A DNA stretch of 64,000 nucleotides, taken from positions 32,001 through 96,000 of the IMG/VR virus record IMGVR_UViG_3300025012_000031; one strand, given 5' to 3'. How positions within the stretch are numbered: the stretch's first letter is position 1; every line of letters starts with the position of its first letter. Source of the stretch: a virus. Positions 28,195 through 58,979 of this stretch are shown here, one piece after another. The notes under the pieces are model-generated. The model saw only the letters and a program-made list of their open reading frames with translations, was not told the DNA's origin and searched no databases. The position numbers and the translations under genes were made by a program.

Positions 28195-28266
28195 AGCCCA
28201 CACGGGGAATCGAACCCACGGTCTCATCCTTACCAAGGATTTAATCTACCATTGAAATATGCGGGC
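28195..28266 (-). tRNA. tRNA-Thr(GGU)
   Basis: Cloverleaf, loop TTGGTAA. Confidence 0.85.
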
Positions 28267-29143: not shown

Positions 29144-29219
29144 GCCCGGAGAGGCAGGAATCGAACCTACGATTTTACCATCTTCCTTTAATCTGCGCAG
29201 ATTAAAGCTATCACCCGGA
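29144..29219 (-). ncRNA. tRNA-like RNA lacking an anticodon arm
   Basis: T arm GTAGG-TTCGATT-CCTGC, closing CCGG stem, one long hairpin CTTTAATCTG/CAGATTAAAG. Confidence 0.55.
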
Positions 29220-29229
29220 TAATGTTTTA

Positions 29230-29905
29230 ATGACTGAGACTAAATCATTTGCATTAGAACTTTCAACGGATTACCAACCGGGTCCTACCCCAATTGTTGC
29301 CGCATTGTCCACCCCGCACATCCAAATAGATCGTACGATGGTATTCTAACATGGTTGCCTTTGTTGAAGAGTGGCGTTTCTCTTGTCATGATGATGTACT
29401 CGGCGATCATCGTACCCTGACTGGCAGCTAACCAACCAAGTGCGGATTCCGACCAATGTGTATCAGGCTTGGGGCCTTACCACATCCCAATTCTTTCGTT
29501 AGATAGTTGGGAGTTAAACCATTTATCCATCATCATCGCGGCTGTCTTTCCATTTTGTATATATGATATCCAAATCATTAAGGAACTTACCAAGAAGTGC
29601 AGCCGCAGTGGCTTCATTATCTTTCGACAACGAAATACCACACTCCTTTATGTCTTTCTCCGTGGGTCGGATACTCAACGGATTTGTCGGAATTCGTATT
29701 CACCGAACCCCTAAAATCTTCTGCGCGCCCTTGTACACCATACTCGGACCTTAACACAGATACCCCTTATCTCTTATTGTTCATCAGTTTGGTTGAATGG
29801 AGCTCAGCACCACCTGTTAGTCTTTCGGTCACCGTTAGGCCATCCGATTTCTCCCATTCCTGACGTCCCAACTATCTCCACCGAAACCAATCGATGAAGC
29901 CACAC
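29230..29905 (-). ncRNA. GOLLD-like large structured RNA
   Basis: About 680 nt without credible ORF in tRNA array; ACCGAAAG...ACAGGTGGTGCTG, GGAGTGTGGTATT...GAAAG hairpin, 3' TCTCAG recalled as GOLLD-like; boundaries approximate. Confidence 0.6.
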
Positions 29906-30135: not shown

Positions 30136-30250
30136 TGCCAGCGTAGGGAATCGAACCCTTGTCTCCGAGAAGTAGAATTATACCCGAGGGAATCGAACCC
30201 TCATCAACCGTCCTGCGCGCATGGTGTTTGGACGTCCGCCAGATCTGGCA
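30136..30250 (-). ncRNA. tRNA-like RNA with two T-arms
   Basis: TGCCAG/CTGGCA closure; AGGGTTCGATTCCCT occurs twice. Confidence 0.6.
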
Positions 30251-31956: not shown

Positions 31957-32757
31957 TTATTCGTCGTCATCATAACGATCTTCGGTTGGTTCTTCATACA
32001 TCTCAGAATATACATTTGCTTCTGGTATTTTCTTCTCAATGCCCTTGACTATTCCATCGGCGGTCGACTTATGATCGTCTTTATGATAACATACTTTAAT
32101 TTTTAACGGGTCTTCATTTACAACATCAACGAATATGACGCCCTTTTGCACTAGTGATTCTGCTGGGATAGCACCGGTCTTTGCGGCACCACGATCCATG
32201 CCATCCCAATCTTCAAAATGTGGATGTTTTTCGAGGTATTCATCAATCGAAAGAATGTCACCCCTCCAATAGAATCCCTCAATGCTCTTCAACAAATCTT
32301 TCAATCTAAGTGCAATTGGTAATGCCCCGACGGTAGATGATATTTTAATATGTGGATGTTTACCTAAGTACGATCGCAGTAAAGTCAAATCATGCCACGT
32401 CAAGTGTTTGCCGATGATTTCTATTGCAAGCAAGTACTTACTCAGTGGTTTAACGGCCTTTGTATAAATTCGTTCTTCTGCTTCATGATCTTTATGTTTA
32501 TATCCTGAAGTAGGAACAATTTTGTATTTATGAGAAAGTTTATCACCATCAATTACGAAACGAATATCAGAATTCTCATCTTTACCCGTTACTATCCAAA
32601 ATCTCTTATCGCGAGAAAATGAAATCTGTTGAGCATGCGTCTTTAATTCATCATCAATCAATATCCTTCCAACATTTTCAGCCGGTGTAATATGATATAG
32701 AAGTCCAACTTGTTTGCCTTCTTTAAGAAAATCTCTAAATCTAATTAAAGATGACAT
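31957..32757 (-). CDS. putative ADP-ribosyltransferase-fold protein with capsid-targeting-like N-terminus
   Basis: IRFRDFLKE; LYHIT...ISFSR...EAEERI. Confidence 0.5.
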   Translation of the reverse strand: MSSLIRFRDFLKEGKQVGLLYHITPAENVGRILIDDELKTHAQQISFSRDKRFWIVTGKDENSDIRFVIDGDKLSHKYKIVPTSGYKHKDHEAEERIYTKAVKPLSKYLLAIEIIGKHLTWHDLTLLRSYLGKHPHIKISSTVGALPIALRLKDLLKSIEGFYWRGDILSIDEYLEKHPHFEDWDGMDRGAAKTGAIPAESLVQKGVIFVDVVNEDPLKIKVCYHKDDHKSTADGIVKGIEKKIPEANVYSEMYEEPTEDRYDDDE

Positions 32758-35398: not shown

Positions 35399-35590
35399 AT
35401 AAAGTCTTTATTTCGTCATTCTAAGCAGCAGGGACCTCATATCCGTCGGTTCCTGTTTACTTAAAACTTTAACATCTTTACAGCCACACCAAGGACAGTC
35501 TACACCAACTGCGGGTGATTGCCATTCATGGTTGCATTGAATCTCTGTGTTCTTACAAAGTAGAATAAACATCTTTCATTCTTTCTTAAG

Positions 35591-35665
35591 CTCCGCCTAC
35601 AGGACTCGAACCTGTCTCAGTCTCGGTTAACAGCCGAGTGTCGTCGCCCGGACGACTCAAGCGGA
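35591..35665 (-). tRNA. tRNA-Asn(GUU), overlapped by endonuclease stop
   Basis: CTCGG-CTGTTAA-CCGAG. Confidence 0.85.
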
Positions 35666-36274
35666 ATGTATAAATGATATAGCCTTTGAAATTTCACCTT
35701 TGGTATTGCTCATCATATCTTTCCACTTAATACGATGAACGACCCAACCATGTTCATTTAAAAGTCTATCCTTTCTTATATCTCTTTCTTTAACATCTGT
35801 AAATCTTTCGTGTTGGTCTCCGTCGATTTCAATCGCCTTCTTTAAATGTGGCCAAGCAAAATCTATTGAGTAAATACCAACACAATGTTCTCTGTTGAAA
35901 TTTTTATCATCGAACTCATTTTCAATTACTCTCATGAAAAATTGTTCGGGCCAAGAAGGTTCATTATTCCATCTTGATTTACCGATGTTCCAGGCCTTTC
36001 CTGAAGAATGAGCCAGTTTCATTGATTCGCTAATTTTATTCTTTGTCTTAACGCTAAGAATCCTGCCTGTTCCTGCTATGCCTAACTTCCTACGAGTGTC
36101 TTCAGTAACAATAAACCGAAGACCATTATCTTTAGCCTTCATGAACTGATTAGTACCCTTCTTACCAGTCATACCGTTTTTGTAACGACGATTTGGATTA
36201 ACAGGACAACACCGCTCATGATTACGATGACTATTTTCGTTTTTACATTCCTTGGCACAGAATTGACAATACAC
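35657..36274 (-). mobile_element. Vsr/DUF559 (EDxHD-like) homing endonuclease
   Basis: Zn finger CQFC..H...C, NUMOD3-like, IDFAWP...AIEIDGDQH...RD...GW. Confidence 0.85.
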
Positions 36275-36321
36275 GATAAAGAACCTTTCTTGGTGTCTTT
36301 ATCGTATTTATAAATTCTATT

Positions 36322-36355
36322 TAAGTCAGCTGCTCTACCAATGAGCCACCTGGGA
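36322..36355 (-). pseudogene. orphan tRNA 5' half, probably Asn
   Basis: TCCCAGGTGGCTCATTGGTAGAGCAGCTGACTT ends at anticodon loop. Confidence 0.7.
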
Positions 36356-37818: not shown

Positions 37819-37890
37819 TGGTGCCCCACGATTGAGTCGAACAATCTCTTCCTGGTTCGAAGCCAAGAGTCCGGTTCCGCCGGGTCGGGC
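37819..37890 (-). tRNA. tRNA-Arg(UCG), irregular acceptor
   Basis: CTTGG-CTTCGAA-CCAGG; CCA. Confidence 0.7.
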
Positions 37891-38849: not shown

Positions 38850-38928
38850 TGGTAGGCCAGGTGGGAGTCGAACCCACAAAAACATCTGCTTTTGAAACAG
38901 ACCGCAATACCAGTTAGCGTACTGACCC
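38850..38928 (-). tRNA. tRNA-Leu(CAA), short variable region
   Basis: TCTGT-TTCAAAA-GCAGA; CCA. Confidence 0.85.
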
Positions 38929-39082: not shown

Positions 39083-39125
39083 TGGTAGCCACAGAGGGAT
39101 TCGAACCCATCACTGTCTGGCTTCT
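39083..39125 (-). pseudogene. 3' half of a split tRNA-Leu
   Basis: AGAAGCCAGACAGTGATGGGTTCGAATCCCTCTGTGGCTACCA; pairs with 39755..39779. Confidence 0.85.
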
Positions 39126-39131
39126 TATGAG

Positions 39132-39206
39132 TGCGCCACCCGGGGGTCGAACCCGGAAGCAGCTGATTCTAAGTCAGCTAGGTATGCCAATTCCCTTCAG
39201 CGGCGC
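39132..39206 (-). tRNA. tRNA-Leu(UAG) carried by HNH cassette
   Basis: GCTGA-CTTAGAA-TCAGC. Confidence 0.88.
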
Positions 39207-39698
39207 ATTTTTCTTTCTTCTAAACGTTGGTGTCTGTGAATGACAATTCGGACACAATATCCTCAAATTAAGTTTAGAATTGTCTTTGTTATTACCGTTT
39301 ATGTGATCTAATTCAAAAGATATCGGTTTTCCGTTCCAATCGCTAATACCACACCAAAGACAAGAATTATTCTGTTCTTCAAGAATAATTCGTCTTTTTA
39401 TTGCTTCTGAAAAATCTTCAAATTTACCAAAATTAATTTTTCGTTGTAAATTTTCTGATTTTTTATTTTTTGCTTTTTTACGATCTTCTATGGTAAAAAT
39501 TTTCCGCCTTTTATCAAAGCCTTTCTTAAAAGGACAACCACCGGAAGCAGATTGACGGCCCTTCAATTTTTCGCTGACGCGTTGATTAATTTCTTCTCTT
39601 TTGTTTTTAGTAGAAAATCCACGGGCACATATTGACGAACAGAATCTACCAGACCCATAAAGACCATCATGATCCTTATTACAGTTTTCACAAATCAT
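39174..39698 (-). mobile_element. HNH homing endonuclease
   Basis: CLWC...ELDHINGNNKDN..NLRILCPNCH; last codons lie inside tRNA-Leu(UAG). Confidence 0.92.
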
Positions 39699-39754
39699 TT
39701 TTGAACTCCCAGAATATATTTTTATTTTATTTTATTTATATTCTGTGGGTTCAA

Positions 39755-39779
39755 TCTGCCGTAGTTGGGCTATGTGGCC
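39755..39779 (-). pseudogene. 5' portion of a split tRNA-Leu
   Basis: GGCCACATAGCCCAACTACGGCAGA; GGCCACA pairs with TGTGGCT at 39087-39093. Confidence 0.85.
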
Positions 39780-40126
39780 ATACTTTTACTATGTGATGCT
39801 ACAATTAGAGACTTCCCAATTGCAAAACGGATTCTCAATACAACGTCGAACCTTCTTCATGAGAATTCCAACCTTATCAACAGCATCTCCAAATCGAACG
39901 ATTGTGTCAGGACGATATAGTTGTCCGTTAACGAATAACGGAATCTTTTCAAATTCATCATTCGTCATTTCATCAAATGACGGTTCAATTTGAATGTGTT
40001 CGTTCTTTATCTCGGAAATGATTTCGCCTTCTGTTGCAATATGCTCAAAGTATCTGGCATTTGCTCTGTAGTAAAATCTTTCAAGTGATGTCATTTAATT
40101 TCACTCCATTTATAATTGTTTGTGAG

Positions 40127-40203
40127 TACCCGCAGGGAGATTCGAACTCACCACTTAGTAGGTCTTAAATCTACTGCCTCTGCCTTAGTTGGGCTATGCG
40201 GGC
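40127..40203 (-). tRNA. tRNA-Leu(UAA), short variable region
   Basis: GTAGA-TTTAAGA-CCTAC. Confidence 0.85.
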
Positions 40204-40213
40204 AAAATATTTG

Positions 40214-40242
40214 TGGAGCTGGCCGGGGTCGAACCGGCACTC
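40214..40242 (-). pseudogene. orphan 3' end of Ala-type tRNA
   Basis: GCCGG-TTCGACC-CCGGC-CAGCTCC-A directly after endonuclease stop. Confidence 0.7.
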
Positions 40243-40911
40243 TTACCAATTTTCTATTTTAATTTTTAGTTCTTCCAAAGACAAAGAACACTTCATATTC
40301 TTTTTCATATTATCAGTGTGTGGCATCAAGATACAATTTGCGGGATGCGCTATGATCTCTGGAGAAATATCATTATTCCAACCGAACTTTATTGAAATAG
40401 CATGATCTCTTGAAATACCGTTCGGATTATCACCGCGATTCTTTGCTTTATACCAACCATGAACACCGATTAGACCAAAATCAAATTTATCAGGAAAATC
40501 ATTTAAAGAAAACTTGAATTGACAATCACGGCGATAATTCTTATAATCATCGCCTAAACATTTCTTCGCTCTTCTTTTGCCCCTCATAATGTTTGATAAT
40601 TTTATAGCGCTACTTGCTATAGATGGGTGATCTTTTTTCTGTTTTCCTTTATTCCAGATCGGAACATTATTTGGATTCAGATTATGTTGATTCCCAATAT
40701 CGGTATGCGATCTCCAATAATGAAAACTAATACCCATCTTTGGTCTTAACTTATTACAAATGGGACACTTATAGAGATCGCCAATCTGTTCAAACATGCT
40801 TAATGAAATCTGGTGATCTTTTTTATTACCGCATGAAATATTGTGACGGGCGATATTATTACTAGTAAAGTTCTTTAAACATTTTTCACATGTGATTTTG
40901 GTTCGATTCAT
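40243..40911 (-). mobile_element. Zn-finger plus HNH-like homing endonuclease
   Basis: CEKC..H...C, CPIC..H...H, SRDH...HPANC...N..K; TATAAATA upstream. Confidence 0.8.
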
Positions 40912-40972
40912 AAAATATCCTTTTTAGAATATTTATAAATGCTCTACCAAAATCACTATAATTTTGTTTTTG

Positions 40973-41046
40973 TGGACCGAGAGGGAATCGAACCCTTCAA
41001 GTCAGGAAGCGTGCAAGGCCACCCCGTAACCCCATTACTTCAGCCC
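40973..41046 (-). tRNA. tRNA-Ala(UGC), weak anticodon stem
   Basis: G3:U70, loop CTTGCAC, A73. Confidence 0.75.
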
Positions 41047-43349: not shown

Positions 43350-43424
43350 AGATCGCGGTGGGAGTCGAACCCACTTTTCAAGCTTGAGAAGCAAGCGGCC
43401 TAACCATTCGTAGACGACGCGATC
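43350..43424 (-). tRNA. tRNA-Glu(CUC), mismatched anticodon stem
   Basis: GATCGCG/CGCGATC acceptor, loop TTCTCAA. Confidence 0.7.
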
Positions 43425-44092
43425 ATTAATCTTACTCTACCCTTTCTAAAACCTTCGGGTATTTTGTTACTATTTTTAATCTTCGTATTTTCTATACCGT
43501 TCGTAATCCACATTGTCCCAAACTGTGAATTACCACTACCCATCTGATGTTTTGAGTTAGTAGCGCCGATCTTTGCTTTTGTAGCATCAGTATGACGTTT
43601 GTTCTTAAATCCAATCTTTCCAATTTCAGAACAATGTTTGATGATCTTTTCTTTAAAAGCAGGATCATTTTTAAATTTATCGGAAAATGCAACAGAACCG
43701 TTCATTGCTCTTGATTTAAAAAATTTTCTGAATTCTGGATCATTCTTTAGTTTTTCTTGAAAGCCTTTCCTTGCCGCCGAGCAATCAGAACCGCCGCCCG
43801 TACCACCAATTTTCAAATTAATACACAACGGCATCTTTAAAAGATCTTCATTGATAATATCTTTCTCTCTCGCTGCTAATGATTTTCTATCAGAAAGATA
43901 TTCAAGAATTTCAAATGAGCAAGCTTCTTTACCGTACTTATTGATGATGTATCTGATTCGTTTTCCTGAACCCATATAACCATCATTGAGATTGTCTGTC
44001 GAATGCATACCAATATAAAATTTACCAGATGCAATATGGGTTGTCTTGTAGATGACGTGGAACTTTCTTCTGTCTGCTCTGTCAGTTTTCAT
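43400..44092 (-). mobile_element. GIY-YIG (Seg-like) homing endonuclease
   Basis: VIYKTT...FYIGMH...GYMGSG; WITNG; stop inside tRNA-Glu. Confidence 0.9.
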
Positions 44093-44143
44093 AAATACCT
44101 CCGTATAGAAGTATTTATAAAAGTATGTCAGAAATGTTAGCGG

Positions 44144-44223
44144 CAAGCGCAGGAAGACTCGAACTCCTAGGTACCGGTTTTGGAGGCCGGCTTGTGTCCC
44201 TTCACAAATTAACCACTGCGCCT
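44144..44223 (-). tRNA. tRNA-Trp(CCA), enlarged D region
   Basis: CCGGC-CTCCAAA-ACCGG; G73. Confidence 0.7.
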
Positions 44224-57968: not shown

Positions 57969-58053
57969 TGGAGGAAAGTAGAGGAATCAAACCCCGATGC
58001 TATTAACACCCCCTGGTGTTCAAAACCAGTTTGCCGTCTTGGCGGTACCTTCC
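57969..58053 (-). tRNA. tRNA-Ser(UGA), 8/4 fold
   Basis: GGAAGGTA/TACTTTCC, CTGGT-TTTGAAC-ACCAG, U73 CCA. Confidence 0.8.
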
Positions 58054-58910: not shown

Positions 58911-58979
58911 TGGCGATAGGCAGAATCGAACTGCCCCCGCGGACTTATGAAATCCATGGTCATAACCATACATACCGCC
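58911..58979 (-). tRNA. tRNA-Met(CAU), reduced D arm
   Basis: TGGAT-TTCATAA-GTCCG; A73. Confidence 0.7.

Follow-up and report, generated by a model that had tools for sequence, protein, structure and literature searches.

A predicted nuclease gene and a complete tRNA-Leu between two halves of a tRNA-Leu gene in a T4-like phage

Homing endonucleases usually spare the gene that they target, by residing in a self-splicing intron or an intein or by inserting between genes. A locus in the IMG/VR virus record IMGVR_UViG_3300025012_000031, at which a predicted HNH homing-endonuclease gene and a complete transfer RNA (tRNA) gene, tRNA-Leu(UAG), lie between two pieces of another tRNA-Leu gene, raises the question of how the latter came to be interrupted and what became of it. 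The record is a metagenome-assembled fragment of 155 kb, about 65% complete, and the window, that is, the whole stretch of DNA analysed here, covers 64,000 nucleotides (nt) of it (positions 32,001 to 96,000). A T4-type topoisomerase II subunit and a major head protein are encoded in the window (PHROG search), and the genome that hosts the cassette is that of a T4-like phage. Its tRNA region is very large, with 36 genes called by ARAGORN and several extra ones found only by Infernal or by eye. The arrangement probably arose by the copying of a free-standing homing-endonuclease cassette into the interior of a tRNA-Leu(NAG) gene resident in this phage. All the features analysed at the locus are on the minus strand; from position 39779 downwards they are a 25-nt piece, a 56-nt AT-rich leader, an open reading frame (ORF) of 174 residues, the tRNA-Leu(UAG), 5 nt and a 43-nt piece, the insert between the pieces measuring 0.63 kb and being low in GC:

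39755..39779, minus strand: 5' remnant of a short-type tRNA-Leu, with the acceptor strand, U8/A9, the 5' strand of the D-stem and the D-loop, ending where the 3' strand of the D-stem is due
39699..39754, minus strand: cassette leader, an imperfect hairpin with arms at 39754-39738 and 39717-39701
39174..39698, minus strand: predicted HNH homing-endonuclease gene, 174 residues, with an N-terminal Cys-rich finger and a C-terminal HNH core
39131..39206, minus strand: cassette tRNA-Leu(UAG), with a short variable arm and A73 and without an encoded CCA, found by ARAGORN and Infernal
39083..39125, minus strand: 3' remnant of the resident tRNA-Leu, with the last anticodon bases, the 3' strand of the anticodon stem, a 5-nt variable region, the T-arm, the 3' acceptor strand, A73 and CCA
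40126..40203, minus strand: intact tRNA-Leu(UAA), a paralogue from the family of the split gene, 350 nt upstream and used as the reference for compensatory changes

The two outer pieces carry the marks of a single gene. The 5' remnant has 21 of its 25 positions in common with the start of the window's tRNA-Leu(UAA), and the 3' remnant, which ends in ACCA, abuts the ribosome-binding site (RBS) of the next small ORF (39069-38914). Their acceptor strands pair at all seven positions (six Watson-Crick pairs and G1.U72), in agreement with the complementarity that had been noticed in the original prediction. Compared with tRNA-Leu(UAA), two acceptor pairs are altered on both sides in the split gene, and an unusual bulged-T T-stem is kept through compensatory changes, which is the pattern expected of a once-functional gene. 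A search of the metagenome collection with a structured pattern, made up of the two acceptor strands, the beginning of the D-stem and the T-loop, found 13 intact genes for tRNA-Leu (74-78 nt; anticodons AAG, UAA and CAA) that share this acceptor stem, and most of these lie in densely packed tRNA arrays of phage-like character. With three of them (L107, AAG; L114 and L116, UAA) the split gene shares 83-86% identity, and with the window's tRNA-Leu(UAA) 76%. Judging from this homology to intact tRNAs with Leu anticodons, the split gene belongs to tRNA-Leu.

Alignment to the intact homologues (L104-L116) places the end of the 5' remnant at about nt 22, right after the D-loop, and the start of the 3' remnant at nt 33-35. 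The 10-12 nt that are absent correspond to the 3' strand of the D-stem, nt 26, the 5' strand of the anticodon stem and the start of the loop. The anticodon letters retained are AG, read cautiously as NAG, or the whole AAG as in L107; the earlier claim that the AG of an NAG anticodon survives is thus the conservative of two equally possible readings. Both remnants derive from one tRNA-Leu gene, now dead: the insertion replaced nt ~23 to 32/34, leaving nt 1-22 and nt 33/35-76 plus CCA as dead flanks. The proposal that the resident gene was split and inactivated by the cassette is borne out in that these 10-12 nt are lost and the joined halves give no tRNA.

The insert begins with the leader, whose hairpin (-17.5 kcal/mol, z = -5.3) contains the T4-type late promoter consensus TATAAATA at 39740-39733 and, within its 3' arm, the RBS GGGAG (39710-39706). 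RBS hairpins with an internal late promoter are known from I-TevI and other T4 late genes, where early read-through transcripts are untranslated and late ones, whose start is within the hairpin, are translated. The same series of elements, TTGAAC...TATAAATA...GGAGGTTCGA followed by ATG, precedes the homologous ORFs of L003, L010, L017, L023, L030 and L031. In the survey set of 82 HNH ORFs (80 from viral contigs, that of Serratia phage Slocum and the window copy), TATAAATA occurs within 80 nt upstream at 19 loci, compared with 44 of 5511 background windows.

The motifs of an HNH (His-Me finger) endonuclease, CxxC...DH...N...N...CxxCH, are all found in the translation of the ORF. It matches phrog_10822 with E 2.5e-26, as well as 11 further HNH families of PHROG, and the T5 hegA gene, encoding F-TflIV, with a tblastn E of 7e-9 at ~30% protein identity; a sequence search of the PDB with the protein gave no useful match. 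Its GC content is 32.3%; the long ORFs on the minus strand of the window have a median of 42.7%. The matches above identify the product as an intact F-TflIV-like HNH protein and predicted endonuclease. The gene is free-standing: it is outside any detected intron and has its own late promoter, hairpin and RBS.

The tRNA-Leu(UAG) that follows scores 31.5 bits with Infernal (gathering score 29), and has U33 in the anticodon loop and A73 as expected for Leu. It is missing from the twelve best matches of the split gene, which run from 86% down to 60% identity, so that by sequence the cassette tRNA is assigned to a different family from the resident gene. Its nearest relative, at 75%, is a tRNA-Leu of Slocum that overlaps an F-TflIV-like HNH gene, and the Slocum locus is 67% identical in nucleotides to the window over the HNH 3' end and the tRNA. 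Compensatory changes are present in 16 of 21 cloverleaf pairs among four HNH-linked copies (window, Slocum, L013 and L070; RNAalifold), a pattern consistent with a working tRNA under selection. The HNH ORF and the tRNA overlap by 33 nt, that is, 10 sense codons and the stop, and the tRNA does therefore supply the end of the HNH gene, as was first noticed. We considered whether the tRNA-encoded tail codons are important for the protein and rejected this: in the relatives the HNH stop is a conserved UGA at nt 8-10 of the tRNA, and the window copy, which is in another frame, continues to the next stop, so the tail is incidental to the protein. The insert is a self-contained unit, with a late promoter in an RBS-masking hairpin, an HNH gene and a foreign-type tRNA-Leu(UAG) joined to it via the stop codon; a late-promoter hairpin, an HNH gene and an unrelated tRNA-Leu(UAG) do stand between the halves as originally described, the hairpin being significant (z as above) and the tRNA families different.

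The short variable arm of this tRNA is a wider feature. Two widespread families of phage tRNA-Leu have short, class-I-like variable arms, a length of 74-79 nt and A73, with anticodons UAG, UAA, CAA, AAG, GAG and CAG (in the window, 38850-38928, 39131-39206 and 40126-40203; elsewhere, loci L104-L116 and L121-L161). In bacterial tRNA-Leu, a long variable arm is the norm. Several tRNAs of the window without an encoded CCA end in discriminator-C and then TCA (e.g., 39130-39125, 40125-40120 and 60696-60691), and because of this recurring trailer the right-hand junction of the cassette can be placed only to within 2-3 nt.

The HNH protein has 582 viral relatives, and the family is patchy across distant phages. 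Of the 82 ORFs surveyed, 36 end close to where a tRNA on the same strand begins, at distances from -44 to +50 nt, the gap being +6 nt or less in 29 of them; 17 of these 36 tRNAs are Leu, seven Thr and five Asn. The isotype follows the HNH clade: on a weakly resolved tree of the HNH domain it changes 10 times, whereas 500 shufflings of the labels gave 17.2 changes on average and never fewer than 14, a contrast that is inflated by relatedness. Among cultured T4-like phages, the HNH gene adjoins tRNA-Leu or tRNA-Met in Shigella phage CM8, Aeromonas phage avDM4 and Edwardsiella phage PEi20; no tRNA remnants are visible at the HNH loci of Slocum, CM8, avDM4 and PEi20. Other relatives are intron-borne. 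In L062, the 5' exon of a tRNA-Leu(UAA), ending at U34, is followed by the HNH ORF, a group I core (Rfam, 51.9 bits) and the 3' exon; L055 has the same design in tRNA-Leu(UAA), with the HNH ORF running into the core; and in L076 an HNH relative interrupts tRNA-Lys(CUU). Sequence comparison thus supports a family that would be mobile in phage tRNA clusters, in free-standing and intron-encoded form alike. Further matches to structured RNAs were seen on the contigs of this survey: RAGATH-14 and hammerhead-like matches adjoining the intron-bearing tRNA-Lys (L076:683-932), a partial RNase P RNA-like match inside a tRNA array (L070:1821-2055; 49.7 bits, under the gathering score) and a phage-borne transfer-messenger RNA (L004:115-496; 162 bits).

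Pieces of tRNA genes also accompany the HNH gene elsewhere, at the following loci:

L042: 5' piece (~24 nt, up to the end of the D-loop), followed by HNH, tRNA-Leu(UAG) and lastly a 3' piece
L054: 29-nt 5' piece alone, with the same sequence as the beginning of the tRNA-Leu that follows downstream at this locus
L078: 5' piece alone, with U34 as its last nucleotide
L049: 5' piece only
L023: 5' piece alone, of Asn type and reaching to the end of the D-loop; tRNA-Asn downstream
L034: 5' piece only
L059: complete tRNA, then HNH, then a 3' piece with the same acceptor strand

The two-halves layout is repeated at L042, where the acceptor strand of the 3' piece is the exact complement of that of the 5' piece and the T-loop is decayed. 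Its remnant, HNH and tRNA sequences are all unlike those of the window, which makes it an independent event. In a census of 5' pieces (at least 19 of 24 positions matching the first 24 nt of any tRNA, no more than 130 nt upstream of the ORF), 13 of 80 loci were positive compared with one of 240 control windows, an enrichment of ~40-fold upstream of HNH ORFs; the 13 include three intron exons and at least one uncalled complete tRNA. By the same measure the window's 5' remnant matches at 21 of 24 positions, and the control windows at 19 at most. The end points of the remnants span nt 22 to nt 34 among loci. The survey for endonuclease genes that stop at tRNAs between flanking halves, which had been suggested with the original prediction, returned the stop-at-tRNA junction in the 36 ORFs and the two-halves layout in L042. 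From their sequences, the similar cassettes of related phages suggest that homing nucleases would repeatedly overwrite phage tRNA genes in this manner.

A mechanism can be proposed that joins these elements. The HNH protein, or a close or recent ancestor of it, would nick or cut tRNA-Leu genes between the D-arm and the anticodon loop, a region suggested by the position of the intron-borne relatives (U34|A35) and by the clustering of remnant ends at nt 22-34. The break would be resected and then repaired from a genome that bears the cassette. Where the cassette tRNA is similar enough to the target, the right junction could form by homology and the 5' remnant alone would stay, as in L054, L078 and L049; where its divergence is too great for it to act as a homology arm (the window and L042), illegitimate joining would occur on either side and leave both halves in place. 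Homing into intact alleles may from then on use these halves as its homology arms. The spare tRNA would offset the destroyed gene, doing the job that splicing does for the intron-borne relatives. The leader hairpin would limit translation of HNH to late transcripts, and an RNase P cut at the 5' end of the tRNA, which would remove the stop codon, might damp expression, as proposed for T4 segB.

Several observations weigh against this account. No uninterrupted gene was found at the same site among relatives, whether by megablast of the 2-kb region against GenBank phages (no match), by searches with the flanking proteins or by a scan of viral contigs: ORF101, ORF124 and ORF51 led to no syntenic relatives, ORF139 has distant, non-syntenic relatives only, and an exact scan of viral contigs for the 3' remnant gave nothing. 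The search for the uninterrupted tRNA in relatives, suggested with the original prediction, thus gave the 13 intact homologous genes in metagenomes and, among the phages and viral contigs searched, none at this site. The match of the HNH protein to Pfam HNH PF01844 (17.9 bits, E 0.0035) is under the curated cut-off of 21.4. The intact tRNA-Leu(UAA) shares most of its D-arm with the destroyed gene yet is untouched, so the specificity must include the anticodon stem-loop or the enzyme must be inactive on this phage's DNA. The D-arm motif of the cassette tRNA has 44 other phage occurrences, with HNH directly upstream in six and without it in 38; the idea that this tRNA type is exclusive to HNH was accordingly rejected, and the pairing is facultative or opportunistic rather than obligatory. 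Of the supposed welding of nuclease to tRNA, the recurrent stop-in-tRNA join stands, but a fixed partnership with this type of tRNA does not; overall, the original observation is confirmed and its interpretation upheld in part. The destroyed anticodon may have been AAG instead of UAG, in which case the replacement possibly does not decode the same codons. Finally, the concordance in isotype between remnant and downstream tRNA could come in part from the tandem isoacceptors of phage arrays.

The last point leads to the explanation that competes best with homing, namely that the locus is a passive scar: an HNH-tRNA unit would have landed by illegitimate or short-homology recombination in a repetitive array, without the gene being targeted, and the match in isotype would reflect the clustering of Leu genes. 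Tandem Leu isoacceptors are indeed found in phage arrays, there is no clear homology at the junctions, remnant end points vary from nt 22 to nt 34 and the cassette-type tRNA is mostly HNH-free, all of which a chance landing would accommodate. It does not accommodate as easily the independent origin of the layout in L042 with different remnant and cassette sequences, the tracking of HNH clades by tRNA isotype, the residence of intron-borne relatives in the anticodon loop of tRNA-Leu or the ~40-fold enrichment of 5' tRNA pieces upstream of HNH ORFs, and we consider an untargeted landing unlikely.

If the pieces were exons and the 0.63-kb insert an intron or otherwise excised element, a mature tRNA-Leu would be made by splicing, an outcome that had been named as a refutation of the original prediction. 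The occurrence of HNH relatives in group I introns of phage tRNA genes (L062, L055 and L076) and the acceptor strands of the pieces, which are still complementary, speak for such a reading. In Rfam searches, however, positions 27000-62000 matched no intron family with E up to 1, and the 861-nt stretch taken by itself matched none with E up to 10; the same searches detect group I introns in tRNA genes of contigs L025, L051, L080 and L062. The 3' strand of the D-stem and the 5' strand of the anticodon stem are in neither piece, and the insert terminates in a complete tRNA, not in a ribozyme core. ARAGORN in intron mode reported no intron-containing tRNA at the locus, and five alternative direct joins of the halves gave it no tRNA and no anticodon arm. 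A group I intron was rejected as a candidate, with its core (Intron_gpI, P3-P9) undetected, no complete cloverleaf from the exons and 10-12 nt lost. Splicing of the two halves into a tRNA is effectively excluded, and the exon reading as a whole is very improbable. The four group I introns detected, all in tRNAs of uncultured phages, are at L025:2666-2887, L051:1412-1606, L080:3290-3490 and L062:3320-3508; three are without an ORF, and the fourth, which interrupts a tRNA-Leu(UAA) at the classical position U34|A35, carries the HNH ORF.

Chance resemblance or a chimeric assembly, conceivable for an incomplete metagenome-assembled fragment, is equally hard to credit, as the pieces have intact counterparts at 83-86% identity and show compensatory changes in the acceptor stem, the architecture recurs in L042 and in two arrangements on the same contig (the DUF559 cassette and ORF222, below), and the right flank enters a normal tRNA-to-RBS junction, as elsewhere in the genome.

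The homing interpretation can be set against known systems. T4 SegB, a GIY-YIG nuclease encoded in the tRNA cluster, cuts the tRNA genes of relatives that have no nuclease and spreads neighbouring tRNA genes (PMC2330249). The end of the segB ORF abuts or overlaps the next tRNA, tRNA-Arg, and damping of expression by tRNA processing has been proposed (PMC2330249); SegB has also been linked to amplification of a tRNA-Tyr/segB unit (PMC13096335). The window cassette likewise has a free-standing nuclease gene among phage tRNA genes, with its ORF end at a tRNA, but the nuclease fold is different, SegB recognises a T-loop motif common to many tRNAs, and no flanking halves of a destroyed same-isotype tRNA have been described for it. 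More generally, a role in diversifying tRNA sets has been suggested for HNH genes located in phage tRNA clusters (PMC6409571). The T5 tRNA region encodes the HNH endonucleases F-TflIV (hegA) and F-TflI/II, reported by Akulenko et al. 2004, as quoted in PMC2330249 and PMC10644984. F-TflIV is of the same protein family as the window HNH, and in the T5-like Slocum an HNH gene annotated as TflIV-like overlaps a tRNA-Leu by 10 nt; the differences are the low protein identity given above and the promoters, which are of another kind in T5. We rate the window cassette as a probable variant of intronless homing of the SegB and F-Tfl type.

Group I introns with HNH ORFs (I-HmuI type) offer a second comparison: in L062 and L055 they are inserted at U34|A35, and the right junction of the window cassette is at nt 33-35, but the window has no ribozyme core, has lost 10-12 nt of its exons and would be rescued by a spare gene rather than by splicing. 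Reportedly, in the mitochondrial atp6 gene of the fungus Allomyces studied by Paquin et al. in 1994, a mobile endonuclease ORF brings a replacement for the end of the gene and displaces the resident end. There too the nuclease travels with a substitute for the disrupted sequence and the displaced piece is left as a pseudogene, but the gene is protein-coding, the fusion is in frame and the setting is a eukaryotic organelle, whereas the cassette in the window brings a tRNA gene in full and leaves both halves in place. Integrative elements in tRNA genes restore the 3' end from attP, leaving a duplicated piece of the tRNA. Insertion into a tRNA gene is common to both cases, as preservation of function by a carried sequence would be; those elements, however, use a recombinase and identical short repeats, and the window cassette has no integrase and a spare tRNA unrelated to the target.

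A literature search returned no description of tRNA halves flanking a nuclease-plus-tRNA unit. An element that lands inside a gene and pays for the damage with a spare copy would be a third solution beside the intron or intein and the intergenic landing, one that is not known to have been described for phage tRNA genes. Its footprint, tRNA halves around a nuclease-plus-tRNA unit, can be used for systematic searches, and the layout points to likely target sites of an uncharacterised HNH clade. It would also offer a mechanism for rapid reshuffling of phage tRNA sets, with relevance to codon supply and to escape from host defences that cleave tRNAs.

Two other arrangements in the window also contain tRNA pieces:

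35590..36355, minus strand: DUF559-type nuclease cassette, matching the HNH cassette in design, with a different nuclease fold
40214..41046, minus strand: ORF222 arrangement, with a complete tRNA-Ala(UGC) at 41046-40972, TATAAATA, ORF222 at 40911-40243 and an orphan T-arm at 40242-40214

In the former, the 5' half of an Asn-type tRNA (36355-36323) ends in the anticodon loop and is followed by TATAAATA and a hairpin (z = -3.4), then by the nuclease ORF (36274-35657; DUF559, E 4.5e-12), whose stop falls in the acceptor stem of a tRNA-Asn(GUU) (35665-35590). In the latter, ORF222 has an N-terminal zinc finger and belongs to phrog_23051, a family without assigned function; a search for relatives of ORF222 found none. 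The orphan T-arm, with an Ala-type 3' acceptor strand, begins 1 nt past the ORF222 stop. A further homing-endonuclease ORF (44146-43400, minus strand; phrog_314, E 6e-31) has its stop 25 nt inside a tRNA-Glu(CUC) called by Infernal only (43350-44146 region). Tentatively, phage tRNA arrays might host homing elements that generally replace instead of splice, with unrelated nuclease folds (HNH, DUF559/EDxHD-type and possibly ORF222), each joined by stop codon or promoter to a spare tRNA, overwriting same-isotype genes and leaving halves as footprints. They would descend from, or alternate with, forms borne by introns in the anticodon loop, and could be one of the main forces behind turnover in the tRNA sets of phages, among them tRNAs used against host anticodon nucleases; we hold this general scheme to be a possibility, somewhat short of an even chance.

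Some minor features of the tRNA region were also recorded. A GOLLD RNA match is found at 29231-29648 (minus strand; 146 bits compared with a gathering score of 150, E 4.5e-39), and within ~60 nt after it there is an orphan T-arm-like element (29154-29170) that is absent from the output of every tRNA caller. At 30144-30202 (minus strand) there is a pair of T-arm-like elements, spaced 42 nt apart and without recognisable 5' halves, which may be tRNA remnants. Probable complete tRNAs missed by ARAGORN, all on the minus strand, are located at 44144-44222, 37819-37890, 57969-58053, 28195-28266 and 58911-58979; Trp(CCA), Arg(UCG) and Ser(UGA) were recognised among them by eye and two more by Infernal, and the tRNA set of the phage therefore exceeds the 36 called genes.

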